In this document: positions 11,064-28,909 of the stretch, in pieces
How positions within the stretch are numbered: position 1 is the first letter of the stretch
Layout: each line of letters begins with the position of its first letter
Assembly (NCBI GenBank): GCA_964561525.1
Contig: CAZLPY010000002.1
Coordinates: forward strand, 1-32,800
Direction: 5' to 3'
DNA from: an uncultured Candidatus Saccharibacteria bacterium
GTDB taxonomy: Bacteria; Patescibacteriota; UBA1384; CAJBMM01
Length of the DNA stretch: 32,800 nucleotides
Position numbers and translations under genes: made by a program
Notes under the pieces: generated by a model
Told to the model about the DNA's origin: nothing
What the model saw: only the letters and a program-made list of their open reading frames with translations
The model's database searches: none

Positions 11064-11101
11064 GGCTATACTCTATGACTGATCTTAGTTTCTGTCAATT
11101 T

Positions 11102-11134
11102 AAAAACCGGCAGAGGCATAGTGCCCCAGCCGGT
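11102..11134 (-). terminator. Intrinsic terminator of module A cargo
   Basis: Minus strand ACCGGC TGGGGCA CTA TGCCTCT GCCGGT followed by a T run. Confidence 0.75.
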
Positions 11135-11145
11135 CATGCCTCCCT

Positions 11146-11730
11146 TCAGAAGAACGTGTTGATTTGGAGTCGCAATCTCTCTGGTGCGGATCCGTTAAAC
11201 GAAAGTGGCTGCCAGTTCAGCCGGACGTTACTCGTGCCGATTTTCCAACGAATGGTCGGTCCAAGCCGAATTGGTGCTGCCCCCGAGTTCTCTCGCCAAA
11301 ATGAGACTACGATGCCCGCTTCACGATCATGACCTGCCTGCCAGCGAATCGATGATTCATTCGAAAAGAAGATCCTCGGCCCGCCATTCAGCGGCACATA
11401 TTGTGCCAGACTGATTGATACTTTGGCAGCACCGAGCGAATCGTTGTAATCAATCCATGGCTCAATGAACTGCTTGTTCTGTGTTGGCCATGTCACAGCA
11501 TAGGCACCGATTGAGAGGGTTTTGCTGACAGGCCACAGGCGGCCAATCTGCAAATCCTGAGCCTGTCGCGTGTTCCAACCAAATGCCCACAGCTCAATCT
11601 GCGGTGTCAGCACCCCGATGGTATCATACGGCTTCCCACCGCGCGTGGCATCGAAACGATTGATAAGGATGGTCTGAGCCTCTGTGGTTCCACACAACGC
11701 CAGACAAAATATCACTGCAATGAGTTTCAT
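11146..11730 (-). CDS. Secreted beta-strand protein, outer-membrane beta-barrel-like (cargo A3)
   Basis: Start moved to MKLIAVIF; signal peptide ending TEA-Q; alternating hydrophobic strands; ends RLQINTFF; paralog of 27334-27924. Confidence 0.7.
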   Translation of the reverse strand: MKLIAVIFCLALCGTTEAQTILINRFDATRGGKPYDTIGVLTPQIELWAFGWNTRQAQDLQIGRLWPVSKTLSIGAYAVTWPTQNKQFIEPWIDYNDSLGAAKVSISLAQYVPLNGGPRIFFSNESSIRWQAGHDREAGIVVSFWRENSGAAPIRLGPTIRWKIGTSNVRLNWQPLSFNGSAPERLRLQINTFF

Positions 11731-11734
11731 GATT

Positions 11735-11855
11735 GTTCCCCGACGTTTTGGGCAGTCGGCACCACTAGATTTGGTTGTTAAAGCGAGCATCTCTGCTCAA
11801 GAAAATGGGTTGCGGTTGTACACCACAACCCGACTTCACTTGAGAAGAATTACTC
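11735..11855 (-). promoter_or_regulatory. Intercistronic structured element 1: long hairpin, boxA-like motif, AATCTAGTGG, short stem-loop
   Basis: Hairpin 11785-11855; GCTTTAACAA; AATCTAGTGG (11771-11762); CCGAC-TGCCCAAAAC-GTCGG. Confidence 0.7.
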
Positions 11856-12188
11856 GTTGAGCTGAAGACCATGGAGACTCATGCTATGCAGCCCACGACG
11901 CAGGTAGATCGTTTTTTGATGAGGCCAGCACTCATGTACTTCATCGAGCCTCCAGAGGTCATTGGGTGACTCGACGCCGTTTCTTAAGAAGCGCTCACCG
12001 TCCCCACTGGGGTCATTGCGGAGGCTATCGCAGTCGATAGCGAAACCACTTAAAATGACTCCACCGGTGCCATTAACAACGGCATTGCCGACAACCTTCA
12101 TCTCCGCCACACAATGACCATCGTACGGTCGATAGGTACAAGACCTAACCATATAGGTACCCGGCTGAGGCATTTCCGATTTGGGCAT
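11850..12188 (-). CDS. Hypothetical protein (cargo A2)
   Basis: Start moved to MPKSE (ATG 12188, GGGGAG RBS); no recognised family. Confidence 0.65.
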   Translation of the reverse strand: MPKSEMPQPGTYMVRSCTYRPYDGHCVAEMKVVGNAVVNGTGGVILSGFAIDCDSLRNDPSGDGERFLRNGVESPNDLWRLDEVHECWPHQKTIYLRRGLHSMSLHGLQLNE

Positions 12189-12193
12189 CTTTT

Positions 12194-12321
12194 TCTCCCC
12201 ACCTGTTAGGGCCGGTGGCGCCACTAGATTTTAAGGTGATACGAGCTAGATTTCTCTGCTCAGGGAATCGGATGAATAAGCACTGCTTGCTCATCCGGTC
12301 CTTCTGAAAAGAGATTTACCT
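12194..12321 (-). promoter_or_regulatory. Intercistronic structured element 2, homologous to element 1
   Basis: Hairpin about 12248-12321 with the shared TGAGCAGAGA arm; TCACCTTAAAA; AATCTAGTGG (12230-12221); CCACC-GGCCCTAACA-GGTGG. Confidence 0.7.
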
Positions 12322-12579
12322 TTTTCTGAAGTAGGCAGTGTGGTTCCGTACTGTGAACAAGCCGTCACCGACGGAATTATCTCTTCTCTCGCAAATCAAC
12401 TGCACTTCATGCTTCGTTTCGATATAGTTGAGAAGCTCCAGGTAGGACATATATGTATGTTCGGCACCATCCTTGTGCTCCCCATCGTACTTGATCTTCT
12501 TGTCTCCCTCGGTATAAGTCGCGCTGAATTTACGACACCCGTGGTCGAACACATGCTCAACCTCCAGTTGGGTAATCAC
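12316..12579 (-). CDS. Hypothetical protein (cargo A1)
   Basis: 87 aa, GTG start with GAGGAG RBS. Confidence 0.7.
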   Translation of the reverse strand: MITQLEVEHVFDHGCRKFSATYTEGDKKIKYDGEHKDGAEHTYMSYLELLNYIETKHEVQLICERRDNSVGDGLFTVRNHTAYFRKR

Positions 12580-12610
12580 AAGCCGCTCCTCAATGAAAAT
12601 ATTGGTACTT

Positions 12611-12686
12611 CGCGCCTGAGAAAGAGTTTCAGCTCTAATTCCCTAGCGTGATGAATCAGTGTAGCATATTATTTACGTTTTGTCAA
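12611..12686 (-). promoter_or_regulatory. Module A cargo promoter and leader hairpin
   Basis: TTGACA (12686-12681), 17 bp, TACACT with extended TG; imperfect hairpin 12611-12650. Confidence 0.75.
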
Positions 12687-12765
12687 TAGTTTGGGATGAC
12701 AAATAATACATAGTATGATATATTGGTTGTGCTATGATAATTGAAAGCATCAAACGGAGGCTAAA

Positions 12766-13617
12766 TTGAGTCCAAAATCCAGTGGTAATGCATGGTTAGC
12801 TGGGATCGCGATTATAGCATTGGCGATTTCGTTAACAGCGTTGATGGGGACAAAAAAGAATAATAACGTAAGTCAGCGCGATAGCTTAGCTGAAATTCAA
12901 AAAACAAAAATAATGAATGTTTGCGTCGCCGAATGGCCACCATTCAGTATCAAAGATGCAAAAACGGGTAAATATTCTGGTGTAGATATAGATGCCCTAG
13001 AAGCAATTGCAAAATCTCTTGGCGCAAATGTTTCCTACCACGACACAACTTTTGGTAACTCACCTGCAGCCGTCCAATCAGGTACCTGCGATGTAGCCAC
13101 CTCACTTTACGTCACACCCAACCGAGCAGCAGCAGTCAATTTTACGCGTCCAATTCTTTTTGGCGGGGATACTGCATTAGTGAAAAAAGGTGATACACGG
13201 TTTAAAACCGTTGCCGATCTGGATCAATCAGGCATCAAAGTCGCAACTGCAACGGGTGAATCAGGCGATATTTATGCTAAAGCGAATTTCACAAAGGCTA
13301 CGATAGTGGCAATTGACGTAGACTCATCTGATCAAACAAGGTTCTTGCTCGAAGTGACATCGGGGAGGGCTGATGTAGGAATTGCCGACTACAATACGAT
13401 CGCTAATTTCGCAAAAGCACACCCAGAAACTGCGGTGCTGTTTCAAGATAAACCGTTTAATCTCAGCGCTGATGCATATGGTGTGCGATATGGTGATACT
13501 AATTTCTTAGATTTCTTGAACAGTTCATTATTAACTATGCAAACTAATGGAACGTGGGATCAGATCGAAAAAAAATATAGCGCCCAAGCATTTCATCAGC
13601 AACTCGACATTAGATAG
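12766..13617 (+). CDS. Polar amino-acid ABC transporter substrate-binding protein (SBP family 3)
   Basis: N-terminal anchor; EWPPFS, GVDID, TPNRAAAVNFTRP and GRADVGIAD; GGAGG RBS with TTG start. Confidence 0.92.
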   Translation: MSPKSSGNAWLAGIAIIALAISLTALMGTKKNNNVSQRDSLAEIQKTKIMNVCVAEWPPFSIKDAKTGKYSGVDIDALEAIAKSLGANVSYHDTTFGNSPAAVQSGTCDVATSLYVTPNRAAAVNFTRPILFGGDTALVKKGDTRFKTVADLDQSGIKVATATGESGDIYAKANFTKATIVAIDVDSSDQTRFLLEVTSGRADVGIADYNTIANFAKAHPETAVLFQDKPFNLSADAYGVRYGDTNFLDFLNSSLLTMQTNGTWDQIEKKYSAQAFHQQLDIR

Positions 13618-13625
13618 AGACAGAC

Positions 13626-14294
13626 ATGTATCAGTGGAATTGGAATATCGTTTTCCAATATCGATATGTTTTTATACAAGGAGCGGCAACTACCGTATGG
13701 TTGACGTTCCTTGTGGTAGTTCTTGGTACAGCTCTTGGGGTACTTATCGGACTCGCCCGTAGGAGTGAAGCACCATTTATCCCTACTTTAGCAAAGATAT
13801 ATATAGAACTTTTTAGGGCTCTGCCCATTTTGGTCCTCTTAATCTGGCTTTATTATGTTTCTCCTATAATACTGGGAATTCAGCTGTCACCATTTATTAC
13901 AGCATTGGTAGCTTTAGCAATTAATTTGTCAGCGTTCGTAGCTGAAACAGTACGGGCTGCTATAGAATCAATTCCTACTAATCAGTTTGAGTCGAGTATT
14001 ACATTGGGTTTAAGCTCAACACAAACAATGATTTATATTATTCTGCCGCAAGCGATAAAAAATATGTTACCTAACCTGATGGGTTTATATGTTAATCAGC
14101 TAAAGAACTCTTCATTGGCTTCAGTGATTGCAGTTAATGAGGTATTACATCGCTCGAACTCGATCATTAGTAACACATACCGCCCGCTTGAGGTCTATAC
14201 CACAGTAGCCATTGTTTACTTAATTCTGATTATTCCTTTCTCGCTATTAGCCAACTGGATCGAGAATAGAATCGACAAAACGAGAAAAATCTAA
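13626..14294 (+). CDS. Amino-acid ABC transporter permease (HisM/GlnP type)
   Basis: YIELFRALPILVLL, AFVAETVRAAIESIPTNQFE and LKNSSLASVI. Confidence 0.94.
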   Translation: MYQWNWNIVFQYRYVFIQGAATTVWLTFLVVVLGTALGVLIGLARRSEAPFIPTLAKIYIELFRALPILVLLIWLYYVSPIILGIQLSPFITALVALAINLSAFVAETVRAAIESIPTNQFESSITLGLSSTQTMIYIILPQAIKNMLPNLMGLYVNQLKNSSLASVIAVNEVLHRSNSIISNTYRPLEVYTTVAIVYLILIIPFSLLANWIENRIDKTRKI

Positions 14295-15484
14295 TGGTCA
14301 TACTTGAGGTCAAAAATTTATCTAAAACTTTTTATAGTAATAAGAAACAGGCTGCTCTATCAAATGTCTCGTTTACGGTTGATGAAGGAGAGATTGTTTG
14401 TTTGATCGGACCGAGTGGCTCAGGTAAAAGCACGCTACTTAGATGTCTTTCTGGACTCGAGGAAATTGATAAGGGTGAAATTATCTTGCTCTCCAGCAAT
14501 AAACTTCATCACTACAATCGAGCTGCGCTAGATGCTATTAAAGAAAACGTAAACATAGTTTTCCAAGATTATAATCTCTGGCCTCATAAAACAGTAATGG
14601 AAAATATTATTTTCGCACCCGTCACCAGAAAAAAAATGTCGATAGATAAAGCAACAAAAATGGCATCTGACTTACTAAAACGTTTTGATTTATATGATAA
14701 AAAAGATGCTCATCCAGACTTTTTATCAGGCGGTCAACAACAACGGGTGGCTATTATTCGCGCACTTACTCTTCAGCCAAAACTTTTGCTATTGGATGAA
14801 ATTACCTCAGCGCTAGATCCCGAACTTGTCTCAAGCGTCTTTAATCTTATCAAGGTATTAGCCAAAGAAGGCCAATCTATGATAATCGTGACTCACAATT
14901 TGAAATTTGCATCTGAAGTCGCTCATAAAATAATCTTCCTAGACGGTGGTCGCATAATTCAACAAGCTCCAGCCCGTGATTTTATTTACGCTCAAAGCAA
15001 CCCTCGAATCGCTGATTTTTTACAGACATTTTCTCTCAACAAGCATGAAATAAATGTATATGAAGGTTTCGATCAATTTCAAGCTTTTCAAATGGGTACT
15101 TTGAAACGATTTAAAAGAGGCTCAGCAAAACACGTAGTGGCATCTTCGGGCGATAGATGGTTTGAATCAATGGGTGCCTTTTATGAAGCATATGAAAGAG
15201 AACGGGTTGAAAAAGAAATTTCGTGGCGCATGGTTATGTATAAAGAGTCACCGCTTGATAGAGATATACGGCTACGGTATCCAAAATTAAATGAGTATAG
15301 GCTAATTCCAAAAAATATGGAGAATCCAGCAAATTATTACGTCATTGAAGATATCGTAGTGATCCAAATATTTGGCAAACTTGGTGATGAGCCATCAATC
15401 ATCGAGATTAAAAACAAAGATGTTGCTCAAAGCTATATGAATTATTTCAATCTGCTGTGGGAACAAGGCAGAAAGCTTAAATGA
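14294..15484 (+). CDS. Amino-acid ABC ATPase (GlnQ/HisP type) fused to a C-terminal TrmB-like effector domain
   Basis: GPSGSGKS, LSGGQQQRV, LLLDEITSALDPE; about 145 extra aa from INVYEGFD to YFNLLWEQG align with the C-terminal half of 15481-16203. Confidence 0.88.
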   Translation: MVILEVKNLSKTFYSNKKQAALSNVSFTVDEGEIVCLIGPSGSGKSTLLRCLSGLEEIDKGEIILLSSNKLHHYNRAALDAIKENVNIVFQDYNLWPHKTVMENIIFAPVTRKKMSIDKATKMASDLLKRFDLYDKKDAHPDFLSGGQQQRVAIIRALTLQPKLLLLDEITSALDPELVSSVFNLIKVLAKEGQSMIIVTHNLKFASEVAHKIIFLDGGRIIQQAPARDFIYAQSNPRIADFLQTFSLNKHEINVYEGFDQFQAFQMGTLKRFKRGSAKHVVASSGDRWFESMGAFYEAYERERVEKEISWRMVMYKESPLDRDIRLRYPKLNEYRLIPKNMENPANYYVIEDIVVIQIFGKLGDEPSIIEIKNKDVAQSYMNYFNLLWEQGRKLK

Positions 15485-16203
15485 TGGAAAAAGAGTTAGA
15501 AAAGCTAGGATTTTCAGTGCATCAGGCGGAGGTTTATTTGGCCTTAATCGACATTGGCCAAACTGGCGCGGGTGAGATAGTCAAGCAGACTGGCTTACAC
15601 CGCAACATTGTCTACGAAACGCTCGATAAACTAGTCGCCAAACACTTGGCCACCAAAGTCACCGAAAAGAACGTGGCGCAGTTTGTGGCTACTGACCCTA
15701 AGCGCATTCAAGAACACATTAAAGCAAACTTAGATCAAGCAGAGATGCTGGTGCCGCAATTAGTGGAACGGGCCAATATTCAGCAGGATATTGTAGTGTA
15801 CAACGGCATTGAAGGGTTTCGCACCTACAACATGGAGGCGCTTTCCAGAATACGGCGCGGCGGCTCGCAATACGTTTTGGGCTCAGTTGGCAACCTGTGG
15901 TACGAGCTGATGGGGGAACAATATCGAAAGTACGAAAAATTGCGATTAAAGAAGAAAATTTGGTGGAAGATGATCGCCTACGAGGAATCAGAGCGTGATC
16001 AAGCGTTGATTGACGAAAAAAAGCTTATTGAGGTACGCATTATCCCCCGCAAACTCTCTACCCCAGCCAACATGCACATTTGGGAAGGCACTGTAGCTCT
16101 GCAAATGGTAGTAGAGCCCTATACGGTAGTAGAGATTCGGAACAAGGCTCTGGCAGAGAGCTATTTGAACTACTTTAACTTGCTGTGGGAGCAGGGAAAG
16201 TAA
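15481..16203 (+). CDS. TrmB-like transcriptional regulator (module A)
   Basis: LEKLGFS...AEVYLALID...HRNIVYETLDKLV wHTH; VYNGIEG; YFNLLWEQG. Confidence 0.88.
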   Translation: MMEKELEKLGFSVHQAEVYLALIDIGQTGAGEIVKQTGLHRNIVYETLDKLVAKHLATKVTEKNVAQFVATDPKRIQEHIKANLDQAEMLVPQLVERANIQQDIVVYNGIEGFRTYNMEALSRIRRGGSQYVLGSVGNLWYELMGEQYRKYEKLRLKKKIWWKMIAYEESERDQALIDEKKLIEVRIIPRKLSTPANMHIWEGTVALQMVVEPYTVVEIRNKALAESYLNYFNLLWEQGK

Positions 16204-16205
16204 AG

Positions 16206-16233
16206 CCGGCTTGAGCGTGGTGACTCAAGCCGG
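16206..16233. terminator. Hairpin between convergent genes, likely bidirectional terminator
   Basis: CCGGCTTGAG-N8-CTCAAGCCGG, perfect 10 bp stem. Confidence 0.7.
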
Positions 16234-16236
16234 ATC

Positions 16237-16848
16237 TTAAAACTTATGGAACACCTCCGTTCTAATTTGGCAGGATCCAGTTAACGGACCGCTCAGGAAT
16301 TGGCCGAGGCGGGTACGTGAGCACCATTCTCCTCGCTTCCACTCTACAAGCGTGCCCAGTTGAAATGTTATCGGTTTGCCCGATCGGACGTTCAGTGCCC
16401 AGCCAAGACCGGCCGAAACCTCATGGCTTACTGGCCACACCAGGCGGCTGTTCGGCATATTGAGCTCCCATGGACTACCCGAAGGTTTAAACCCAAGATA
16501 ATGTGGTCCACTAAGCTTTCCGCCCAATACTGGCACAGAAAAGACAGAGTAGGCCCCGATTGATACGATGCGATCTTGCTCGATGAGCTGCTCAGCGTAG
16601 AGCCCGAGGCGGCCTTTGACAGTCCTCGCCTTCCACGAGCCTGTATAGGCGACGAGCTGTAACAACCTGCCCGGCACGTGTGGTGAGCCAATTTGTAACA
16701 ACTCACCCACTCTCGGCATGATCAATTGTTCAAAGAGAGTGGGGCTGCCTTTGCGGAGTGAGCTAAGGTAGCCTCCACCTGCTAGGTTCGACTGTGCCGT
16801 GGCATGCGTAGCCATAATACTCAAGGCTATGACTGTAAGCGTTTTCAC
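16237..16848 (-). CDS. Secreted beta-strand protein, beta-barrel-like (cargo B)
   Basis: GTG start with GGGGGA RBS; signal peptide ending ATA-Q; ends QIRTEVFHKF; shares WPVS and SIGAY with cargo A3. Confidence 0.65.
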   Translation of the reverse strand: MKTLTVIALSIMATHATAQSNLAGGGYLSSLRKGSPTLFEQLIMPRVGELLQIGSPHVPGRLLQLVAYTGSWKARTVKGRLGLYAEQLIEQDRIVSIGAYSVFSVPVLGGKLSGPHYLGFKPSGSPWELNMPNSRLVWPVSHEVSAGLGWALNVRSGKPITFQLGTLVEWKRGEWCSRTRLGQFLSGPLTGSCQIRTEVFHKF

Positions 16849-16861
16849 TAGTACGTCCCCC

Positions 16862-16929
16862 TTGTTTTAAGTGCTTCTTGCGATGTATGCAAGAATGATG
16901 TAGTGTATTATAAAGATTGCGAGTGGCAA
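16862..16929 (-). promoter_or_regulatory. Module B cargo promoter, leader hairpin and boxA-like motif
   Basis: TTGCCA, 16 bp, TACACT (overlapping TATAAT); TTCTTGC-N7-GCAAGAA; GCACTTAAAACAA. Confidence 0.65.
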
Positions 16930-16940
16930 ATATGACCCTA

Positions 16941-16958
16941 TGGTGATATCTATCACCA
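16941..16958. promoter_or_regulatory. Palindromic operator candidate
   Basis: TGGTGATA-TC-TATCACCA in the divergent intergenic region. Confidence 0.55.
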
Positions 16959-16974
16959 CTTATAACATTTGGGG

Positions 16975-17032
16975 CTCCTCACCCCTTCTCTCTCCTCCGA
17001 GAGGAGAGGGTGGTCGGAGACCGGGTGAGGAG
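16975..17032 (+). repeat. GC-rich three-stem palindromic element covering the TrmB RBS
   Basis: CTCCTCACCC/GGGTGAGGAG outer stem; CTCTCCTC-CGA-GAGGAGAG; GGTC-GGA-GACC. Confidence 0.65.
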
Positions 17033-17037
17033 TGATT

Positions 17038-17790
17038 ATGTATACAGAACTATTTCAGGAGCTTGGATTAGCTCAAAACGAGGCGCGGATTTACGAAACG
17101 TTGCTTCGAGAAGGAGAGTCGTCTGTCGGTCATATTTCTGCAGAAGCAAAAGTGCATCGGCGAAATGTGTATGACTCCCTCAACCGACTAATCGAAAAAG
17201 GATTAGTATTTGAGATCATGCAGCGCAATGAAAACCGCTATCAGCCAGTAGACCCACACAAACTAGCAGAAACAATTGACGAAAAACAACATGCGCTTTC
17301 AAAAGTAATGCCGGAATTAGAAAAGCTCTATCAAGGCAAACCTCATCACGACGAAGTGTATGTGTATCGTGGCCTCGAGGGCTGGAAAAACTACATGCGC
17401 GAGATATTGCGCGTCGGCGAGGACTGGTATTCGATTGGAGCGAAAGCTGCCTTAAACAGCCATAAGCTACCCGGTTTTTTTGAGATGTTTCGTACGGAGT
17501 TAGGAAAGAAGAACATCACTTCTTATAACCTCTATGATCCGAGTGTCAAAGGAACCGAATACGAAGGTCATTTGGGCTCGTCTTATCGCTTTTTGCCCAA
17601 AGAATATCACACTTCCTGCACGGTCATTATCCTGGCCGATCGGATCTTTTTGTTCTCCGGTATCACGCTCGGTGATTTCAACGAAGACTTTTCGTTCACC
17701 GTGATCGTGAACGCAGAGCTCGCCAAAGCTTATAAAATTTGGTGGCAATTTATGTGGGATATGTGCCCAGCGGTTAAAAAACCAAAATGA
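17038..17790 (+). CDS. TrmB-like transcriptional regulator (module B)
   Basis: FQELGLAQNEARIYETLL...HRRNVYDSLNRLIEKGLV; VYRGLEG; WQFMWD; ATG 17038 fits the GAGGAG spacing better than GTG 17032. Confidence 0.88.
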   Translation: MYTELFQELGLAQNEARIYETLLREGESSVGHISAEAKVHRRNVYDSLNRLIEKGLVFEIMQRNENRYQPVDPHKLAETIDEKQHALSKVMPELEKLYQGKPHHDEVYVYRGLEGWKNYMREILRVGEDWYSIGAKAALNSHKLPGFFEMFRTELGKKNITSYNLYDPSVKGTEYEGHLGSSYRFLPKEYHTSCTVIILADRIFLFSGITLGDFNEDFSFTVIVNAELAKAYKIWWQFMWDMCPAVKKPK

Positions 17791-17853
17791 ACTACTAACA
17801 AGTCCTAAATTTAGATTGGGAATTCGGCAGATTTTTTGTCGAGCAGGGATACT

Positions 17854-19095: not shown

Positions 19096-19098
19096 ATT

Positions 19099-20526: not shown

Positions 20527-20554
20527 CGCTATGATACTTTCTTTGATATAAACG

Positions 20555-21382: not shown

Positions 21383-21493
21383 GATTTCTCCTCATAGCCG
21401 CCCCTCCATTAGCGAATAACACGATATTGTTGCACATTCGCGACATAGATGCAAGATTTCTATCGATTTACCACAAAAAATAGCGATAAATAA

Positions 21494-21563
21494 TCAATGA
21501 CAAATTTCTAATTACTAAATAATGACATAATGTCTAAATGCTCATTGGAGACTTGGGAATTAA
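21494..21563. repeat. Heptamer array (TAATGAC type)
   Basis: CAATGAC AAATTTC TAATTAC TAAATAA TGACA TAATGTC ... TCATTGG AGACTTG GGAATTA. Confidence 0.7.
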
Positions 21564-22808
21564 TTAGGCATTTTCTTGAGCCAGCTGTTCTTCGATACGC
21601 AGCAGTTCGTTGTATTTTGCCACACGCTCACCGCGAGCAGGAGCACCAAATTTTACATACGGTACACTCATCCCCACTGCAAGATGAGCCGCCAGTGTCC
21701 CTTCTGTATCACCGGAGCGGTGCGACAGTATCGGTGTGTATCCCAGTGTTTTCGCCTCCTCAATGGCCTCAATGGCACCGGTAAGCGTGCCAATTTGAGT
21801 CGGTTTAATCATAATGGCGTTAGCGATTTTATCGGCTGCCCCTTTCCGTAAGCGGATGGCGTTGGTCGAAAAAATGTCGTCACCGATAACCATCATCTTG
21901 CTCCCAAGACGCTCTGTGAGGGTGATCCAGTTCGCCCAATCCTGATCAGCCAAACCGTCTTCAATGCCGATGAACGGAAAAATAGCCTGCAATTTTTCGA
22001 ATTTATTGATTAAGTACTCTGCCGGTACATCACCTTGATGATGCGCCAAGTGATACAGTTGCGCATCGGTAAACAAATTGCTCGCTGCCTCGTCAAGCAT
22101 AATGCCGATACTATCTTTGGAGTAGCCTGCCGCTTCTGTGCCTTGAACAATCAAACTCATACCCTGATCGGTGGTAGCGCCCGGTACCGCATAGCCGCCT
22201 TCATCTCCGACTTTTTGATTGAAGCCGCGCTGCCGTAGTAGCGTTCCCACCGCGTGATAAATTTCAGTGCCAATGCGCAGCGCCTCATGGTAAGGCATCT
22301 CGCCCCGAATCACTATGTTAAATTCCTGGGTATCGGTCGAAAATGAGGCCAGCTTGCCGCCGTTAAAAATTGTCAAAATGGGTGCCGGCAACACGGTACC
22401 CGGACCAAAATAAGCATGGAGTGGCGTTCGATTACGATGCGCCATGGCCAGCGCGAAGGCCGAAGAGATCGCTAAAATGCCGTTGGCACCATATTTTTCT
22501 AAGCTGGGGGTGCCATCGAGGCCGACTAGATACTGATCGATCATTTTTTGCGAGGTCAATTCAACATCAATCAGGGAGGGTACTAGATATTGATTGATAT
22601 TTTCCACCGCACGCAACACCCCACGCCCACGCAGCCGCCCTAAATCACCGTCCCGCAGCTCATGCATTTCGTACGAGCCGATCGATGCTCCGCTGGAAAC
22701 TTGTCCTAAACCACGACCGCCGCCCTCCAATTCAAGCTCAACCTCGACGGTGGGATCTGCTCGGGAGTCAATAATCTCGCGGGCATGGATCGATTTGATT
22801 TTGGGCAT
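21564..22808 (-). CDS. eno: Enolase (phosphopyruvate hydratase), divergent
   Basis: AREIIDSR, SGASIG, GDEGG, IEDG, GDD, SHRSG and ERVAKYNELLRIEE. Confidence 0.92.
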   Translation of the reverse strand: MPKIKSIHAREIIDSRADPTVEVELELEGGGRGLGQVSSGASIGSYEMHELRDGDLGRLRGRGVLRAVENINQYLVPSLIDVELTSQKMIDQYLVGLDGTPSLEKYGANGILAISSAFALAMAHRNRTPLHAYFGPGTVLPAPILTIFNGGKLASFSTDTQEFNIVIRGEMPYHEALRIGTEIYHAVGTLLRQRGFNQKVGDEGGYAVPGATTDQGMSLIVQGTEAAGYSKDSIGIMLDEAASNLFTDAQLYHLAHHQGDVPAEYLINKFEKLQAIFPFIGIEDGLADQDWANWITLTERLGSKMMVIGDDIFSTNAIRLRKGAADKIANAIMIKPTQIGTLTGAIEAIEEAKTLGYTPILSHRSGDTEGTLAAHLAVGMSVPYVKFGAPARGERVAKYNELLRIEEQLAQENA

Positions 22809-22867
22809 ACAGTAATACTCCTACTGATAGTATGCCTCAACAAGGGACTGGGGGGCAATGGCGTGGG

Positions 22868-22976
22868 AACGACGAATGTCTAAAATTAGCACTGGGATTT
22901 ATTTAGTCATTCGACATTACCCATTCGGCTGCGCTCAGGGTAAGCTGAGCACTGTCGAAGCTTAGAAATTAGATAT
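22868..22976. repeat. Heptamer array with an embedded palindromic REP-like unit
   Basis: GTCATTC GACATTA [TTCGGCTGCGCTCAG GGTAAG CTGAGCACTGTCGAA] GCTTAGAAATTAGATATT. Confidence 0.7.
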
Positions 22977-24053
22977 TCACTTGTTCACGACTTGATGATA
23001 AACATCGAGCGTTTCCTTAGCACATCTCTCCCACGAAAAACGCTGTGCTTGTGTATGGCCTTTTGCAATCATCTGCGCACGAAAATCCGACTGCTGCAAC
23101 AGGCGAGCGATTCCCGAAACCCACGCACTCTGGTCATGAGGCGAGAGCGTGATGCCGCCATCGCCAACCACCTCAGGTAGTGATGAAGTATTGCTCGAAA
23201 TAACCGGGGTACCGCAGGTCATCGCCTCAAGCGGTGGCAGCCCAAATCCTTCGTAAATTGAGGGGAATAAAAAGATATCGGTGCCATGATACAGGGCCGG
23301 TTTATCAGCGTCCTGAACATAGCCAGTAAAGCGTACGTCATCCTCAAGCCCAAGTTTGGTCACCAAGCGGAAAAGCTGGTCGTAGTGCCAGCCTTTTTTG
23401 CCGGTGATGACCAGTGTATGGGGCAGATGATGCTCCTTTTTTGCTTGAAAAAACACCTTGACTAAAAATTCCAAATTCTTGCGCGGATTGATGGTGCCAA
23501 CGTTCAGCAGATATGGGCTGGTGATGCCGTACTTTTCACACACCGCATCAACCTGCTTTGGGCTGACAACTTGCCTAAATTCTTGTCCAGCCGCTAAATG
23601 AATCACTGATATGCGCTCTGCCTCTATCCCCAGTTTTTGCACAATATCGTCTTTAGAATGATTCGAAATGGTAATAAAATGATCGGCAAAGTGATACGAA
23701 TAGGGCATCCATTTGGAGTAAAATTGGCGGGAGAAAAAGGGAATGTTGGTGTGAAATAGGCTAATCACATCGTGAATGGTCACAATTTTTTTACCCGAGT
23801 ACAGGATTGGCACCGAAAACGCTGGCTGATGTAGTAAATCCACCCGGGCCGAGCGGGCAGCGAGCGGTAGCGTTACTTGATCCCACCACAGGCGCCCAGG
23901 AGTAGATAGATCGTCCTGCCGCTCGGGATAAAATAACTCAAACTGATCATCGCTCGACACTTCCTTGAGCGCCCGGGTTAAATTTTCCACATAAAACCCA
24001 AAGCCGGTCTTTTCCCCTAGAGTAGTCTGTGCATCTATACCAATTCGCAACAA
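22977..24053 (-). CDS. Glycosyltransferase family 4 (GT-B)
   Basis: [19 protein letters not shown] and [16 protein letters not shown]; TTG start with GGAGG RBS. Confidence 0.94.
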
Positions 24054-24173
24054 AACCTCCGGTTTCTAGTATGGATGATACCAAGTTTGGGCTGCTTCGT
24101 CGATCAAGATTTGCTAAAGTCGTAACTTGGGATAGACTAACAATGCAGACTCTTACAAGTGGAGGAGGTAGGA

Positions 24174-24455
24174 ATGGCCCAAGTAACGCTCGACAACTTA
24201 GCCGTTATGGTTCAACAAGGATTTACCGAGTTACGTGACGAATTAATTTCGCGTATGGATGCTCGATTTGATAAAATTGAGGACGAGCTGCGCTATATCC
24301 GCAATGATATTCGCTTGTTAAGCATGCGCCTGGACGCATTCGAGAAAAAGACTAACGAGGACTCCGATGTATACCGTCATGAGATTGTGGACCTGCGCCG
24401 CCACATCCAGTTGCTCGAAAAGCGCTTAGTCAAGCTCGAAAAAGCCCGAGGTTAA
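24174..24455 (+). CDS. Small coiled-coil hypothetical protein
   Basis: Start moved to MAQVTLDNL (GGAGGAGG RBS); heptad pattern throughout. Confidence 0.75.
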   Translation: MAQVTLDNLAVMVQQGFTELRDELISRMDARFDKIEDELRYIRNDIRLLSMRLDAFEKKTNEDSDVYRHEIVDLRRHIQLLEKRLVKLEKARG

Positions 24456-25177
24456 CCCTCCGCCGCTTGCCACATAAATTCAAAACAGGCCCGGAAGGTA
24501 TCTACAATTCCTGATCCTTCGATGACGATGGTGTGGATGTCCGTATCGTATGAAACTAAAGCTAATTTGTTTTCATAGAGAATAATATCAGTCGACAGTG
24601 GGTTTGCGCCCGGCCAATAGCGGATTTCCTGCTGCGGTTTTTTGAAAAAACGTTCGTATGCCACTGGTCCAGCTTGTGTGGCGATTAACTCTCGAACTCG
24701 CACGTTGTTCTGTGCGATGCGCTTGGCCAAATCTGGTGAATACTGCCCCCATATTTTGACCACAAACTCGGGCGAATAAATATTATCATAGGCCTTGATG
24801 GTCGTTAAATACTCATAAATTGCTCGCACCTCTTCTTTGCCCTCGTAAAACCGCACCTTTGGCTTATTGGGCGCTCTATTATAAACCGATCGCAGCTCCG
24901 GCATCAATTGATTCAAGCGCTCCCAGCGATTTTTTAGCGTGCGCGATAGCACTTGGGGATCCTCCGCTACGTATCGCCGGCGATTATTTTTTTCGAAATA
25001 ACTGACCAGCCCTTTTTTCATCAGCGTATCGAGCACTAAATAACAATTCGGCCGAATAATATCGGCTTTTTTAGCGATTGGCTGCACTGTCGAGTCACCT
25101 AATTCAAGCAGCGCCACGTACACCCGTGACTCTTTTTCATCTAGCCCTAATTCCTGCAAAACGTTTATATCATCCAT
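24452..25177 (-). CDS. TrmB-like transcriptional regulator (module C)
   Basis: LQELGLDEKESRVYVALLELG...RPNCY; KPKVRFYEG; FEFMWQAA. Confidence 0.9.
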   Translation of the reverse strand: MDDINVLQELGLDEKESRVYVALLELGDSTVQPIAKKADIIRPNCYLVLDTLMKKGLVSYFEKNNRRRYVAEDPQVLSRTLKNRWERLNQLMPELRSVYNRAPNKPKVRFYEGKEEVRAIYEYLTTIKAYDNIYSPEFVVKIWGQYSPDLAKRIAQNNVRVRELIATQAGPVAYERFFKKPQQEIRYWPGANPLSTDIILYENKLALVSYDTDIHTIVIEGSGIVDTFRACFEFMWQAAEG

Positions 25178-25182
25178 TCGTA

Positions 25183-25213
25183 TTATCGTATATTATTTAC
25201 TACGATAAATCAA
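25183..25213 (-). promoter_or_regulatory. trmB(C) promoter with overlapping palindromic operator
   Basis: TTGATT, 17 bp, TACGAT, 7 nt to ATG; palindrome TTATCGTA-N10-TACGATAA (25183-25208). Confidence 0.7.
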
Positions 25214-25270
25214 CATATTGAGCTTAGGTGGGAATAACAAGATTAGATTTTATGAATATTATGATCGATA

Positions 25271-25367
25271 ATCGTATATGATACTTGACATTATCCCAAT
25301 AACATGCTATGATGTCCTATCGCTTAGGAAATACATATTCACTTAAGCGAGAACCTAAACAAAGGAG
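25271..25367 (+). promoter_or_regulatory. Module C cargo promoter, leader hairpin and boxA-like motif
   Basis: TTGACA (25285), 17 bp, TATGAT with extended TG; TCGCTTA...TAAGCGA (25320-25350); GAACCTAAACAA; AGGAG. Confidence 0.75.
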
Positions 25368-25374
25368 CTTAGAT

Positions 25375-25890
25375 ATGGCCAGTATGTTTCCACCTGTGGG
25401 CATGTTGATCGTTGGTGCATTGTTTGTCGGCGCAGGCATCAGATTCTTCCGCGCGAGCGGAGATATTGGCCCGCATGCGCGTTATGAGAAGGGTTTCCTA
25501 CGAGACGTGTATCGCTTATGCGGAGTCGGAATGTTTATCTTCGCCTGTTTGAGCCTCGGTACGCGTTCTCCTCGACCTGAAGCCAATGAATGGGCCTACT
25601 ACACCAGCTACCGTAGCGAGAAGAAGCTGAGCTGGCTCAAGCCAGAGATTAGCACTTACTACGGACCATTCGACTCCTCCGCCAAGATAATCCAGGACGG
25701 TGAAGGGTATGCCATCGTCATTCCGGCTAAAAAGCTTCGAGTGACTGAATACCCGGTGATTAACGGTCGCTATGAGCACGTTCGTTACATCTGGCTGCAA
25801 AAGCCGGGTGGGCGTATGATCGGATGCTGGGATACTCTTTATGGCGACTGGTACAAGACAGACTATGGCAACTGGCATCCCCCGGGATAA
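25375..25890 (+). CDS. Hypothetical membrane protein with two TM helices (cargo C1)
   Basis: Start moved to MASMFPP because ATG 25309 lies inside the -10 box; two hydrophobic segments then an aromatic-rich domain. Confidence 0.7.
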   Translation: MASMFPPVGMLIVGALFVGAGIRFFRASGDIGPHARYEKGFLRDVYRLCGVGMFIFACLSLGTRSPRPEANEWAYYTSYRSEKKLSWLKPEISTYYGPFDSSAKIIQDGEGYAIVIPAKKLRVTEYPVINGRYEHVRYIWLQKPGGRMIGCWDTLYGDWYKTDYGNWHPPG

Positions 25891-25897
25891 GTACCTA

Positions 25898-25926
25898 CAG
25901 CCCCAACGCGAAACGCGTTGGGGCTG
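25898..25926 (+). promoter_or_regulatory. Intercistronic perfect hairpin
   Basis: CAGCCCCAACGCG-AAA-CGCGTTGGGGCTG with no U-tract, followed by GTAACCTTAA and ATCTAG. Confidence 0.7.
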
Positions 25927-25965
25927 GTAACCTTAATGGCACATCTAGCCGAGAGGAGAATCGAT

Positions 25966-26334
25966 ATGAGCACAGGAATGTACGTACTTTTTGCCGCAAT
26001 CACCTTTGCGAGTTTCTGCGGAGCAATGAGTGTAGCAACAAAAACACATGTGAGACGCTACGAGGTCATTTTTATTTTGTGCATCCTGATATGCTCTACA
26101 AGTGGAGCATGGCTCTTTGGCAATCTGTTAGTATTGTTTACCGGTAATCCGGAGCATCGCGAGCACAGAAAGGTCAGCTTCATCGTTTTGGAGAAGCGCA
26201 TTGAGGACCACCACGACAGGACTGGGCATATTGGTACACCTATGCTGCTTGACCAGGACAGACACAAGCACTATGTCGAGGAAAGCTTATTCAACCGTGC
26301 TCATGAAGGTCAGCCAATTACATTTGAGAAGTAG
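25966..26334 (+). CDS. Hypothetical membrane protein with two TM helices (cargo C2)
   Basis: Start moved to MSTGMY (GAGGAG RBS); C-terminal small beta domain ending FNRAHEGQPITF. Confidence 0.7.
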   Translation: MSTGMYVLFAAITFASFCGAMSVATKTHVRRYEVIFILCILICSTSGAWLFGNLLVLFTGNPEHREHRKVSFIVLEKRIEDHHDRTGHIGTPMLLDQDRHKHYVEESLFNRAHEGQPITFEK

Positions 26335-26348
26335 GGAATCGAACTATC

Positions 26349-26379
26349 CACCTCGCGTCGTCTCGACGTGGGGTGTTTT
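26349..26379 (+). terminator. Module C terminator
   Basis: CACCTCGCGTCG-TCT-CGACGTGGGGTG-TTTT. Confidence 0.8.
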
Positions 26380-27103
26380 ATGTCTTCGCAGCTTGCCACA
26401 TGTACTCAAACATTTCTCGATGCGTATCAACAATCCCTGATTCCTCAATCATCACCGCATGCGGATCGGCAGCGTACGAGACAATGGCTAGCTTATTTTC
26501 GTAAATGAGAATGTCGGAATAGATGTTAGTGGTGCTCGGCAAATAGCGCACCTGCTGCAGTGGCTTTTTCCAGCTTTGATGCTGGGGCAAATTGCGCTGA
26601 TCAGTAACGACAATTTCTCGGGCTTGAATGCCAGCTGCGGCCACTCGCTGCCCAAACTCGATCACGTAATCGCCGAAGATCGGCGTAACAGCATCGGTGC
26701 GATAGATATTGTCGTACGATTTTGCCAGTAATACCTGCTCGTAAATTTGTTTAATACCATCCTTGCCCTCGTAATAACGCACTTTAGGCTTGTGCGGCGC
26801 CCGGTTGTAGATCGATCGCAAATCGGGCAAGGCTGCGGCCACCATCTGGGCTCGTTCTTGGATTAGCTTACTTAAGACTTTTGGATCCTCGGCCACGTAG
26901 CGCCGCCATTTGTTACGTAAGTAGTAGCTAGCCAAGCCTTTTTGCACTAACTCTTCTAAGATGTCGTAGCAGTTGGGCCGTTGAAACCTTGCTTTTTCGG
27001 CAATGGCCGCTACTGGCGAATCTCCCAACTCCAATAAGGCCAGGTAGACCTTACTCTCGCGATCTGATAATCCTGCACTAACCAATAAATGTTCTAAATC
27101 CAT
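26378..27103 (-). CDS. TrmB-like transcriptional regulator (module D), close paralog of module C regulator
   Basis: Same length (241 aa); shares ALLELGDS, RPNCY, RRYVAEDP, YNRAP and YENKLA. Confidence 0.9.
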   Translation of the reverse strand: MDLEHLLVSAGLSDRESKVYLALLELGDSPVAAIAEKARFQRPNCYDILEELVQKGLASYYLRNKWRRYVAEDPKVLSKLIQERAQMVAAALPDLRSIYNRAPHKPKVRYYEGKDGIKQIYEQVLLAKSYDNIYRTDAVTPIFGDYVIEFGQRVAAAGIQAREIVVTDQRNLPQHQSWKKPLQQVRYLPSTTNIYSDILIYENKLAIVSYAADPHAVMIEESGIVDTHREMFEYMWQAAKT

Positions 27104-27112
27104 TATTCCTCA

Positions 27113-27140
27113 CTAGTTGTATAAAATATACTACAAATAG
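27113..27140. promoter_or_regulatory. Palindromic operator upstream of trmB(D)
   Basis: CTAGTTGTA-N10-TACAAATAG, positionally equivalent to the module C operator. Confidence 0.65.
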
Positions 27141-27207
27141 AATAACATCTTCTGTGTTATAGAGCAAATTAAGATCAATTTATGCCGCGAATAGTAAATA
27201 TCATTAT

Positions 27208-27330
27208 GTATAAAAATATTGACTTTTATATCTGAATGTGCTATTATAGTCTATTCGCTGCGGCATACCTGCTGCGGTGAAGTCATTAAACAATCCAGTG
27301 GCGGCGACTGCCCGAACAGTCGCTAAGGAG
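27208..27330 (+). promoter_or_regulatory. Module D cargo promoter, leader hairpin, boxA-like motif and AATCCAGTGG stem-loop
   Basis: TTGACT (27219), 17 bp, TATTAT with extended TG; 12 bp hairpin 27254-27281; GTCATTAAACAA; AATCCAGTGG; GCGACTG-CCCGAA-CAGTCGC; AAGGAG. Confidence 0.78.
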
Positions 27331-27333
27331 AAC

Positions 27334-27924
27334 ATGATGCGCTACCTTGGAATTTTCCTGCTGGTGCTTGCCGCACCAAGCATCGCTCAGACGACGTATG
27401 TGCACCGCATTGATGGTGGGCATGGCCTGGTGCCGAGTCACACCATCGGCGTGGTAACACCATACGGTGAAGGCTGGATCTTTACCTTTCCTGCTTTCCC
27501 AGATGTCGAGTTAGGCAAGCTATTTACCCTCTACAACAGAGGGCCTCACAGTTTGCTTGGTGGAGGCTACGCCGCAACTTGGACAAAGACCAGTCAGTAC
27601 TTTGCGTTGCCCTGGTTAACCTACAATGGCACCTTTGGGCGATGGAAAACTAACATCAACTTGGCCAGCTATCAGCCCCTAAATGGCGGGCCAACCATCT
27701 TTTTCTCAGATGAGAGTAGTGTGGTGCATGAGCTGAAATCTGGCCTTAGTCTGGGCATTGCAACCACTTACTGGTCACAAGCTGGTGCCACTACACCGTG
27801 GCGCTTTGGACCGATTCTGAAGGCCACTCTCAACAAATCCGTGGCCATTTCCGCCCGTTATTTGGGAGTTGGCTCATCCAAGCACGGCGATACCGCTCGG
27901 CTTGAGGTCTCGTTCAGCTTTTAG
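27334..27924 (+). CDS. Secreted beta-strand protein, outer-membrane beta-barrel-like (cargo D1)
   Basis: Start moved to MMRYLGIF; signal peptide ending SIA-Q; PLNGGP.IFFS.ESS shared with cargo A3; ends RLEVSFSF. Confidence 0.72.
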   Translation: MMRYLGIFLLVLAAPSIAQTTYVHRIDGGHGLVPSHTIGVVTPYGEGWIFTFPAFPDVELGKLFTLYNRGPHSLLGGGYAATWTKTSQYFALPWLTYNGTFGRWKTNINLASYQPLNGGPTIFFSDESSVVHELKSGLSLGIATTYWSQAGATTPWRFGPILKATLNKSVAISARYLGVGSSKHGDTARLEVSFSF

Positions 27925-27935
27925 GGAGGATACCG

Positions 27936-28604
27936 ATGAATGATTTTCATCACCTGAACCACCAAATCATGCTGCAAGGTGCGGCGCGAGGTCCGCACAG
28001 TGCAATGGTATGCGGCCTCGAATTCCACCTTGAGGCCCATGTGTTCAGCCCGCTCGACTTCGAGGATCCCGAATTCTTCGCTCGGGAAATTAAGGTAGAA
28101 CCCGGACAATCGTTTTTGGAGGTCGGGTGTGGCCACGGCGCCATCAGCGTCATAAAAGCGCTGCAAGGTGCTAATCCTGTAGTGGCAACTGACTTAAACC
28201 CTGCAGCAGTGTTAAGCACGGTTCGCAATGCAGTGCGGCACGGCGTGGGTGATGTAGTCAGAGTGACCACTGGTGACGTGTACAGTCCGCTAAAACCAGG
28301 AGAGCGATATGATGTGATCTTTGGTAACCTGCCCTACAATATCGTGCCGGATCACGCTGGCTTGGGCATGTACGAACGTGCCTTTTACAACGACGGCACC
28401 ACACTGCAGCATTTCATTGGCCAGTCCCCCGATCATCTTACTTCGGGCGGGCGGCTACTGATCGCCTGGTCGCCGGAGCTCGCAGACCCCTCCACACTCA
28501 ATGAACTGTGCTGGCAGGCTGGATACGAAAGTCGAGTGATCGCCACCATGCAAGCGGTCTCACAGCCCATCCATTTTTGGCTCGTTGAAGCCCGTGCCGA
28601 ATGA
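27936..28604 (+). CDS. Class I SAM-dependent methyltransferase, HemK/PrmC-like (cargo D2)
   Basis: FLEVGCGHG motif I, VATDLNP and YDVIFGNLPY (NPPY-like). Confidence 0.85.
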   Translation: MNDFHHLNHQIMLQGAARGPHSAMVCGLEFHLEAHVFSPLDFEDPEFFAREIKVEPGQSFLEVGCGHGAISVIKALQGANPVVATDLNPAAVLSTVRNAVRHGVGDVVRVTTGDVYSPLKPGERYDVIFGNLPYNIVPDHAGLGMYERAFYNDGTTLQHFIGQSPDHLTSGGRLLIAWSPELADPSTLNELCWQAGYESRVIATMQAVSQPIHFWLVEARAE

Positions 28605-28618
28605 ACAGGCAATCATCA

Positions 28619-28651
28619 ACCTCGCGTCATAACCGACGCGGGGTGTTTTTT
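28619..28651 (+). terminator. Module D terminator, homologous to module C terminator
   Basis: ACCTCGCGTC-ATAACC-GACGCGGGGT-GTTTTTT. Confidence 0.82.
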
Positions 28652-28667
28652 ATATTTGAGTATTCAA

Positions 28668-28883
28668 TTAAGCTGGTTCAAGTCGGTGGTCTTTGAGGTA
28701 GCGAAAGACCTTTTTTGGTAAAATGTCACGCGCGTTTAGAATTTCCACACCTACTGGCCGCCCTTCTTTGTCGTAATCAATAAAAATATCATCCGATAAC
28801 TCCGCAGTCTCAGTGATTGGTCCACGGCTAACGCTGAGATGTATGTACGCAGCATCTACTTTTGCATTATTAGCTGGTTTCAT
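28668..28883 (-). CDS. DUF2283-family protein
   Basis: VDAAYIHL...DIFIDYDKEGRPVGVEILNA. Confidence 0.85.
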   Translation of the reverse strand: MKPANNAKVDAAYIHLSVSRGPITETAELSDDIFIDYDKEGRPVGVEILNARDILPKKVFRYLKDHRLEPA

Positions 28884-28909
28884 GGCTCATCCTTCAGTTA
28901 AAATTGAGC

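Follow-up and report, generated by a model that had tools for sequence, protein, structure and literature searches.

TrmB regulators adjoin and control transporter genes, and the porin genes kdgM and nanC are under the local repressor control of KdgR and NanR, respectively. A further kind of contact between transport and transcription is known from MalK, in which a regulatory C-terminal domain of the ATP-binding cassette (ABC) ATPase communicates with the transcription factor MalT. Here we analyze a stretch of DNA from an uncultured Candidatus Saccharibacteria bacterium (assembly GCA_964561525.1, contig CAZLPY010000002.1), in which four TrmB genes are each paired with a short divergent operon of mostly orphan genes, hereafter called cargo. 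The window, by which we mean the whole stretch of 32,800 nucleotides (nt; positions 1-32800), belongs to a 1.10-Mb assembly of 105 contigs with 47.8% G+C and 93.8% completeness. It is present in three DNA sequencing runs, all from one soil study, and no RNA run is among the runs that match it. A sequence-only reading had interpreted the four units as a modular, shuffled, ligand- or contact-inducible platform for the expression of effectors, and it is against this proposal that our results are set out.

Results

The four TrmB genes (15481-27103) lie within 11.1-28.7 kb of the window, each divergent from its cargo operon, and the plan that had been read from the sequence, in which a TrmB gene points away from a promoter, a 5' hairpin and cargo, is present as described (Table 1). 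In unit A, the minus-strand promoter is followed by orf87, orf124 and barrel A, and the opposite promoter leads to a solute-binding protein, a permease, an ATPase and TrmB A, so that the ABC operon does sit between cargo A and trmB A. Cargo B and its promoter are divergent from TrmB B, C1 and C2 share a promoter divergent from TrmB C, and barrel D and a small methyltransferase lie behind a promoter divergent from TrmB D. No cargo operon has a Pfam match over the cut-off or an NCBIfam family, D2 being methyltransferase-like (MTS/HemK-like).

The same pairing is found beyond this contig. Two other Saccharibacteria genomes, G103 and G021, hold 14 and 7 TrmB genes, respectively, and 18 of these 21 genes have a divergent upstream neighbor, compared with 378 of 1178 (32%) of all genes in the genome of the window; moreover, nine out of ten sampled divergent partners have no Pfam family, compared with three out of ten random genes of 100-250 amino acids (aa) from the latter genome, these background figures being rough because the script-made gene calls are crude (longest open reading frames (ORFs), chosen greedily). 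The enrichment of TrmB genes for divergent orphan cargo that the earlier proposal implied is thus borne out: the repeated unit is real and general in the class, and its arrangement is strongly non-random. The description of the cargo as membrane or secreted cannot be generalized in the same way. Of the 18 divergent partners from G103 and G021, only 6 contain a hydrophobic segment against a background of 35%, and orf87 and orf124 have by eye no signal peptide or transmembrane segment. Nor did we find evidence for effectors, as the cargos match no enzyme, toxin, defence or phage family in Pfam, NCBIfam, PADLOC or PHROGs. Literature searches for TrmB together with Saccharibacteria, Patescibacteria or 'candidate phyla radiation' (CPR) found no paper, and those for divergent regulators found nothing relevant.

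All four TrmB proteins score above the PF01978 gathering cut-off of 25.6 bits, and the genome as a whole has 12 such matches in 1.10 Mb. Across the class, the copy number ranges from 0 to 19 per genome, with at least one copy in 111 of 162 genomes, a variation that supports the TrmB expansion named in the sequence-only reading. The AlphaFold2 model of TrmB D (predicted local distance difference test (pLDDT) 93, predicted template modeling score (pTM) 0.58) consists of a winged helix, a long helix and a PLD-like domain. Foldseek matches it over its whole length to TrmBL2 (E = 4e-14) and next to TrmB 3qph (E = 5e-10), and its C-terminal domain to the PLD-fold proteins NucT, Zucchini and PLD3. 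The TrmB proteins, of 240-252 aa, end where TrmBL2 ends; the TrmB D model stops after the PLD-like domain and includes no sugar-binding subdomain of TrmB, and the sugar-sensing TrmB/TrmBL1 equivalogs of NCBIfam score 20-40 bits, over the N-terminus only, against cut-offs of 500-650. On the model, the regulators are of TrmBL2-type architecture without the sugar-binding subdomain, and because this subdomain is missing and the equivalog scores fall far under the cut-offs, there is no basis for calling the units ligand- or contact-inducible. The PLD-like domain could bind something. TrmB genes are clustered in single-contig genomes (G103:C1 568-647 kb and 732-805 kb; G021:C1 373-472 kb), like the four in the window, which suggests TrmB-rich variable regions.

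An inverted repeat is present in all four intergenic regions, and those of units B, C and D are at or beside the cargo promoter. We regard these repeats as candidate operators (Table 1). The repeat of unit A is imperfect, spans 32 nt and may just mirror the two back-to-back promoters.

Some of the units also share a structured leader element. The 55 nt 5' of the start codons are alike in barrel A, orf124, barrel D and the barrel of the nearest relative, with the word AAUCYAGUGGYG, a 5-bp stem with a GCCCNAA loop, and a Shine-Dalgarno sequence right behind the stem; the stem-loop stands 1-3 nt upstream of the Shine-Dalgarno sequence and at a fixed distance to the AUG. RNAalifold recovers the stem from the four copies, with compensatory changes in three of the five pairs. 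A covariance model, R1, was built from these four seeds and run over 61 and then 151 genomes of the class, giving eight strong matches, namely the four seeds and four others at E ≤ 1e-3 (G000:C5:8995-9051, two in G021 and one in G103). All four non-seed copies are in the divergent arm of a TrmB gene and precede unrelated ORFs of about 75-165 aa, and all eight strong copies lie within TrmB-divergent units; the element is present in 4 of 151-162 class genomes searched. The eight copies, aligned by fitting to the model, have 39 of 40 cells paired and 10 cells with changes on both sides, three of the five pairs having changed on both sides; the covariation score was matched by none of 500 shuffles, and slid controls were 27-67% paired. 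The claim that the units have parts in common is supported by this element, which non-homologous cargos carry and which is found in TrmB units only. Units B and C lack it in the R1 search. A search by exact pattern had recovered the three barrel copies only, the orf124 copy being caught later by the covariance model, and Rfam gave no match at E ≤ 1 over 10800-28800. The leader probably acts on the ribosome-binding site as an RNA operator, the alternative being that it is a DNA site, and as the stem-loop abuts the ribosome-binding site, a second, post-transcriptional control step is suggested. Weaker R1 matches (per-genome E 0.002-0.1; L089-L095) were discarded as noise, as none lies within 1.5 kb of a TrmB gene and most are not followed by an ORF. 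An integron-like cassette site was ruled out, since the conserved element takes in the ribosome-binding site and the start codon.

One recurrent cargo belongs to a family of predicted beta-barrels. Barrels A and D are homologous (E = 6e-32) and have the leader in common, in agreement with what had been read from the sequence, and cargo B is a remote relative (hhalign probability 83.5%, E = 8e-6; profile E = 0.007). Among 1.84 billion proteins, the family has 143 representatives at E ≤ 1e-3, nearly all of 183-260 aa and annotated in every source as 'hypothetical protein' at most; it occurs in 18 of the 162 class genomes, across the families of the class. When genome contigs were searched, barrel D alone found no locus and a seven-row alignment found three, the same alignment finding nine in metagenome contigs; in a word-indexed protein search, the single barrel gave 4 proteins and the alignment 12.

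The AlphaFold2 model of barrel D, run with a 15-row alignment (pLDDT 91, pTM 0.81), has 12 antiparallel strands in a barrel of about 175 residues. The matches listed by Foldseek in the PDB are membrane beta-barrels, nearly all of them outer-membrane proteins, together with one designed barrel; NanC (E = 5e-7), KdgM, FapF and OmpG lead, and the TM-score to NanC and KdgM is 0.63-0.66 at an identity of 10-12%. Averaged over the alignment, the strands have a hydrophobic face (Kyte-Doolittle +1.58, 5% charged residues) and a polar one (-0.86, 25%). A signal peptide and a C-terminal aromatic residue (the beta-signal) are marks of outer-membrane beta-barrels, and the family has both, with a Sec-type signal peptide in the alignment and Phe as the last residue in 12 of 15 sequences. 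At the sequence level, cargos A, B and D have no Pfam family and do not belong to the KdgM/NanC family, and PF13557 is matched by one of 15 members (E = 7.9e-6).

Omp85/BamA (PF01103), which is matched in seven diderm genomes used as a positive control, was found neither in the genome of the window (93.8% complete) nor in five other barrel-carrying genomes. A preprint states that a cultured relative has no outer membrane (PMC13278184). The barrels appear to be exported. The ESM Atlas offers a lead only, namely unnamed clusters (score 0.97) of proteins of about 200 aa that come from diderm phyla, and the literature search for porins or beta-barrels in Saccharibacteria found nothing relevant. 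A misbinned diderm contig was ruled out, the barrel being present in other class genomes, some of them single-contig, and in a Candidatus Saccharibacteria locus.

Outside the genome of the window, 11 of 18 evaluable loci have a TrmB gene in divergent orientation to the barrel gene, 0-2 small genes lying between (L062, L063, L064, L066, L067, L071, L073, L074, L075, L077 and L079; L080 and one L074 copy, at contig ends, were left out), and the same pairing is seen in two further metagenome loci (L035 and L040). As TrmB genes make up about 1% of genes, this linkage is real. At L075 (G144:C4, 4080-6300), one TrmB gene is flanked by two barrel genes, one convergent (profile E = 2e-46) and one divergent (profile E = 9e-12).

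The extent to which the parts of the units have been shuffled can be judged from the regulators and barrels themselves. Units C and D are related as had been proposed, the two TrmB proteins being 49% identical and both terminator hairpins containing ACCTCGCGTC..GACG.GGGGTG. Over 16 pairs, the TrmB and barrel distance matrices are correlated (Mantel r 0.43, p 0.0014), and close orthologous pairs are concordant (D of the window with L062, L063 with L077, and L073 with L040). An exception is the discordant pair L075 and L079, whose barrels are 65% identical and whose TrmB proteins 21%. This discordance, together with the occurrence of the leader before non-homologous genes, makes some exchange of parts plausible, but as a general description 'shuffled' is weak, given the overall correlation of distances.

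The promoters are of the ordinary type of this genome. The sequence confirms every hexamer, spacer and TG extension that had been read for them. However, the pattern TTGACA (at most one mismatch), 16-18 nt and TAnnnT occurs 184 times in 126 kb of intergenic DNA, 62 of these sites having TG, versus 235 times in 974 kb of coding DNA, and a looser scan of the unit region found 31 sites versus 28.0 ± 4.3 in shuffles. Similarly, the first paired base of the 5' hairpin is the seventh nt after the -10 in all four leaders, as claimed, and the minimum free energies of the 45-nt leaders of A, B, C and D are -13.7, -7.6, -9.8 and -18.1 kcal/mol against a genome-wide mean of -6.9 (standard deviation 4.2, n = 182). 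By a set criterion, a 5' hairpin is found at 28 of 182 candidate promoters, B, C and D included; the hairpins are an enrichment and no unique mark of TrmB units. Terminator-like hairpins follow cargos B, C and D, and in unit A, which had been credited with a terminator too, the scan found an internal hairpin only and none at the end. The boxA-like word of units A and D is the A-rich 5' edge of the leader element. TAAACAA and TAAAACAA are each upstream of 5 of 945 genes, and the assembly has no rRNA operon, a search for 16S finding no gene.

The ABC operon of unit A has a domain in common with its regulator. Residues 250-396 of the ATPase (14294-15484) are homologous to the C-terminal PLD-like domain of TrmB A (phmmer E = 8.7e-35), and the fusion is kept in 61 proteins, mostly of about 397 aa, which the sources name amino-acid ABC ATP-binding proteins and assign to Berkelbacteria/Patescibacteria. 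Complex prediction for the ATPase domain and the TrmB A domain, with alignments of our own, gave an interface score (ipSAE) of 0.80 (runs 0.80, 0.80 and 0.82; best control 0.00), with partner pLDDT of at least 89 and contact agreement of at least 88%; of 80 solved complexes, 58 reach the same mark, as do 2 of 110 mismatched pairs. Since one domain is a paralog of the other, the predicted pairing may do no more than copy each homodimer. The prediction speaks for a dimerization surface, not for binding between transporter and regulator. The segment 13001-16000, which holds this operon, has 37-42% G+C, compared with 45-51% in flanking windows, and the operon may have been inserted between cargo A and unit B at a later time. 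A second A-type TrmB (G000:C76:1839-2555), 73% identical to TrmB A, has no ABC operon, and its divergent neighbors are two orphan ORFs (182 and 264 aa).

Table 1. Coordinates of the four TrmB units in the window, in order of position.
Feature	Positions	Strand	Remarks
Cargo A3, barrel A	11149-11730	-	Signal peptide and predicted 12-stranded beta-barrel; true start ATG at 11730; E 6e-32 to barrel D; profile E 4.8e-75; alignment
Leader motif 5' of barrel A	11728-11782	-	R1, 65 bits; covarying stem
Terminator-like hairpin between orf124 and barrel A leader	11807-11831	-	10 pairs, tail ATTTTCTT
Cargo A2, orf124	11850-12188	-	Orphan, no Pfam match over cut-off, no NCBIfam, PADLOC or PHROGs match; 112 aa if translated from ATG 12188, with which the leader motif closes
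Leader motif 5' of orf124	12186-12241	-	R1, 68 bits; stem CCACC/GGTGG, not CCGAC/GTCGG
Cargo A1, orf87	12316-12579	-	Orphan, no family (Pfam, PADLOC, PHROGs)
5' leader hairpin, unit A	12610-12651	-	RNAfold
Cargo promoter A	12658-12686	-	TTGACA-17-TACACT with TG
Promoter of ABC-trmB A operon	12696-12724	+	ATGACA-17-TATATT with TG; back-to-back with cargo promoter A
Polar amino-acid ABC importer	12766-15484	+	SBP_bac_3, permease, ATPase
TrmB A	15481-16203	+	PF01978, 42.4 bits; start overlaps ATPase stop by 4 nt
Terminator of cargo B, also behind trmB A	16206-16233	-	11 pairs
Cargo B	16240-16848	-	Signal peptide, C-terminal Phe; remote barrel-family member
5' leader hairpin, unit B	16875-16895	-	TTCTTGC/GCAAGAA
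Cargo promoter B	16902-16929	-	TTGCCA-16-TACACT, no TG
Candidate operator, unit B	16941-16958	.	Perfect inverted repeat TGGTGATA-2-TATCACCA, 12 nt upstream of -35; putative function
TrmB B	17032-17790	+	PF01978, 60.6 bits
TrmB C	24452-25177	-	PF01978, 59.6 bits
Candidate operator, unit C	25183-25208	.	Inverted repeat TTATCGTA-10-TACGATAA at trmB C start; putative function
Candidate operator, unit C, related word	25256-25277	.	ATCGATAATCGTAT; abuts cargo -35 on its upstream side; putative function
Cargo promoter C	25285-25313	+	TTGACA-17-TATGAT with TG
5' leader hairpin, unit C	25320-25350	+	Leader folding, inverted-repeat scan
Cargo C1	25375-25890	+	171 aa from ATG behind AAAGGAG; two hydrophobic segments by eye; no family; alternative ORF start 25309 overlaps -10, use unlikely
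Cargo C2	25918-26334	+	138 aa, orphan; hydrophobic segments by eye
Terminator C	26349-26375	+	Resembles terminator D
TrmB D	26378-27103	-	PF01978, 48.3 bits; best fold match TrmBL2
Candidate operator, unit D	27209-27230	.	Inverted repeat TATAAAA-8-TTTTATA across cargo -35; putative function
Cargo promoter D	27219-27247	+	TTGACT-17-TATTAT with TG
5' leader hairpin, unit D	27254-27281	+	RNAfold; lowest 0.5% of 182
Leader motif 5' of barrel D	27281-27336	+	R1, 69 bits
Cargo D1, barrel D	27337-27924	+	195 aa; 12 strands; Foldseek top NanC, KdgM
Cargo D2, small-domain methyltransferase	27936-28604	+	MTS/HemK-like; behind barrel in nearest relative too
Terminator D	28619-28644	+	Terminator-like hairpin

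Other features of the window lie around and between the units. By eye, from the translations, the small flanking genes at 10461-11063 and 28668-29366 resemble toxin-antitoxin pairs (PIN-like and RelE/ParE-like), and a promoter of its own (TTGACA-17-TAGAGT) belongs to the gene at 10839-11063. The DNA that separates units B and C (17854-24053) encodes, on the minus strand, two Wzy_C (O-antigen ligase-like) membrane proteins, a GT4 glycosyltransferase and, by eye, an enolase, with a weak GT2 match below the cut-off (E = 0.0024); this looks like a surface-glycan cluster enclosing a glycolytic gene. The last 4 nt of trmB C are shared with a coiled-coil ORF of 98 aa (24159-24455), to which two other ORFs of the genome are weakly paralogous (C25:10730-11035 and C2:35147-35521). 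A longer palindrome in the 5' leader of trmB B encloses a G+C-rich perfect inverted repeat, CTCTCCTC-3-GAGGAGAG (16990-17008).

Discussion

We lean, with modest confidence, toward the view that the units are local TrmBL2-type regulators, each controlling a divergent strong promoter, which have been amplified and have diverged together with accessory cargos, a subset of them leader-controlled. The gene order and its enrichment, the predicted folds, and the covariation of the leader and its restriction to the units, on which this view builds, are shown by the analysis. A TrmBL2-type protein, with its winged helix, dimerization helix and PLD-like domain, would most likely bind the inverted repeat at or beside the divergent promoter, and the bound protein would most likely repress both its own gene and a short accessory operon, mostly of envelope genes, repression seeming to us a better guess than activation. 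The pair of regulator and target would have been duplicated and have diverged in some Saccharibacteria lineages, with the consequence that genomes hold many units with different cargos. One recurrent cargo would be the CPR-restricted exported porin-like beta-barrels with 12 strands, and a subset of the cargo genes may be controlled again, post-transcriptionally, via the 55-nt leader.

Several points weigh against this view. The closest fold is that of TrmBL2, a chromatin protein rather than a specific regulator, to judge from its PDB entry title. The inverted repeats vary from unit to unit, and in the single ortholog inspected they are not preserved; the operator assignment is weak for this reason, even if such variation is to be expected when the TrmB paralogs are only about 20% identical. 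The barrel stands without an adjacent TrmB gene in 7 of the 18 loci (L065, L068, L069, L070, L072, L076 and L078), and TrmB A, which is co-transcribed with the ABC operon, may chiefly serve that operon. Added to these are the crudeness of the gene calls behind the background figures and the fitting of the eight-copy leader alignment to its model, which favors pairing.

One might instead suppose, closer to the sequence-only reading, that the units constitute a dedicated platform on which regulators, leaders and payloads are recombined, and whose payloads are host-interaction effectors switched on by ligand or host contact. Such a platform would fit the finding of one leader before cargos as different as barrels, orf124 and ORFs of about 75-165 aa, the discordant L075/L079 pair, and the clusters of TrmB genes in G103 and G021 with their variable copy number (0-19) and orphan cargos. 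Yet neither a ligand-binding subdomain (TrmB D model, NCBIfam scores) nor effector-like domains (Pfam, NCBIfam, PADLOC, PHROGs) were found, the promoter grammar is generic, the distances of TrmB proteins and barrels are correlated, a search of 151-162 class genomes turned up the leader in only four, and there are no recombination sites or mobile-element genes within the units. Overall we consider this account unlikely. A bolder conjecture, distinctly unlikely in our judgment, carries the idea of host interaction to the barrels themselves: as Bam-independent exported porin-like proteins under TrmB and leader-RNA control, they might insert in a membrane other than the bacterium's own cytoplasmic one, e.g., an outer lipid layer of the host such as a mycomembrane, and open a nutrient conduit, the TrmB units then being the regulatory layer of variable host-interaction genes.

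The TrmB proteins could also be TrmBL2-like chromatin or silencing DNA binders, which keep recently acquired or costly orphan genes shut. We regard this as improbable. While the best fold match is to TrmBL2, with the same length and domain layout, the partners are orphans, and the units are flanked by genes that by eye resemble toxin-antitoxin pairs, a general silencer is hard to reconcile with a pairing that is one to one and divergent, with paralogs about 20% identical and with a distinct inverted repeat in each unit, and 12 different chromatin proteins would be odd for a 1.1-Mb genome. That the units are toxin-antitoxin-like or anti-phage modules, in which a regulator or antitoxin restrains a membrane-damaging small protein, is very improbable, for although some cargos are small membrane proteins or pore-shaped barrels, the toxin-antitoxin-like genes adjoin the units, and the TrmB winged helices weakly match the CasR, Csa3 and CARF3 helix-turn-helix models of PADLOC (best E = 1.8e-7), no cargo matches PADLOC or PHROGs, many partners in G103 and G021 are soluble, and the barrels, which bear Sec-type signal peptides, have been conserved in different families of the class.

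If the units are local regulators paired with accessory operons, as we favor, they offer a concrete and testable regulon design for ultrasmall epibiotic bacteria, about whose gene regulation almost nothing is known: one factor family, with up to 19 copies per 1-Mb genome, each tied to an orphan operon. The analysis also brings up two new objects, namely exported porin-shaped barrels in bacteria that are without Omp85 and are regarded as outer-membrane-free, and a structured leader confined to the units.

Among known systems, the regulators most resemble TrmB, TrmBL1 and TrmBL2 of Thermococcales (PDB 3qph, 2f5t and 5bpd), with which they share the PF01978 winged helix, the long helix and the PLD-like domain. 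In contrast to these, they are bacterial (CPR), have about 240-250 aa and no C-terminal sugar-binding subdomain, occur as up to 19 paralogs per 1-Mb genome, and are partnered with orphan genes rather than genes of sugar metabolism. The barrels recall KdgM/KdgR and NanC/NanR in the predicted 12-stranded barrel, the signal peptide, the C-terminal Phe and the dedicated neighboring regulator, but they are outside the Pfam porin families, and no Omp85 was found in the genome. The ABC operon is reminiscent of MalK-MalT in that its ATPase, too, has an extra C-terminal domain, and the overlapping gene that follows encodes a regulator in which this domain recurs. It differs in that the domain is paralogous to the PLD-like domain of the regulator itself and has no MalK-type fold, and binding between the two is a prediction. 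The leader, a short covarying stem-loop beside the Shine-Dalgarno sequence, is comparable to ribosomal-protein leaders and small cis-regulators of Rfam, and differs from such operators of 5' untranslated regions in being tied to TrmB-divergent units and in preceding unrelated genes. Thus, divergent regulator-target pairs and TrmB factors are of kinds already known, whereas a TrmBL2-type factor amplified in CPR genomes together with orphan operons, a barrel family in bacteria without Omp85 and the leader element are new.

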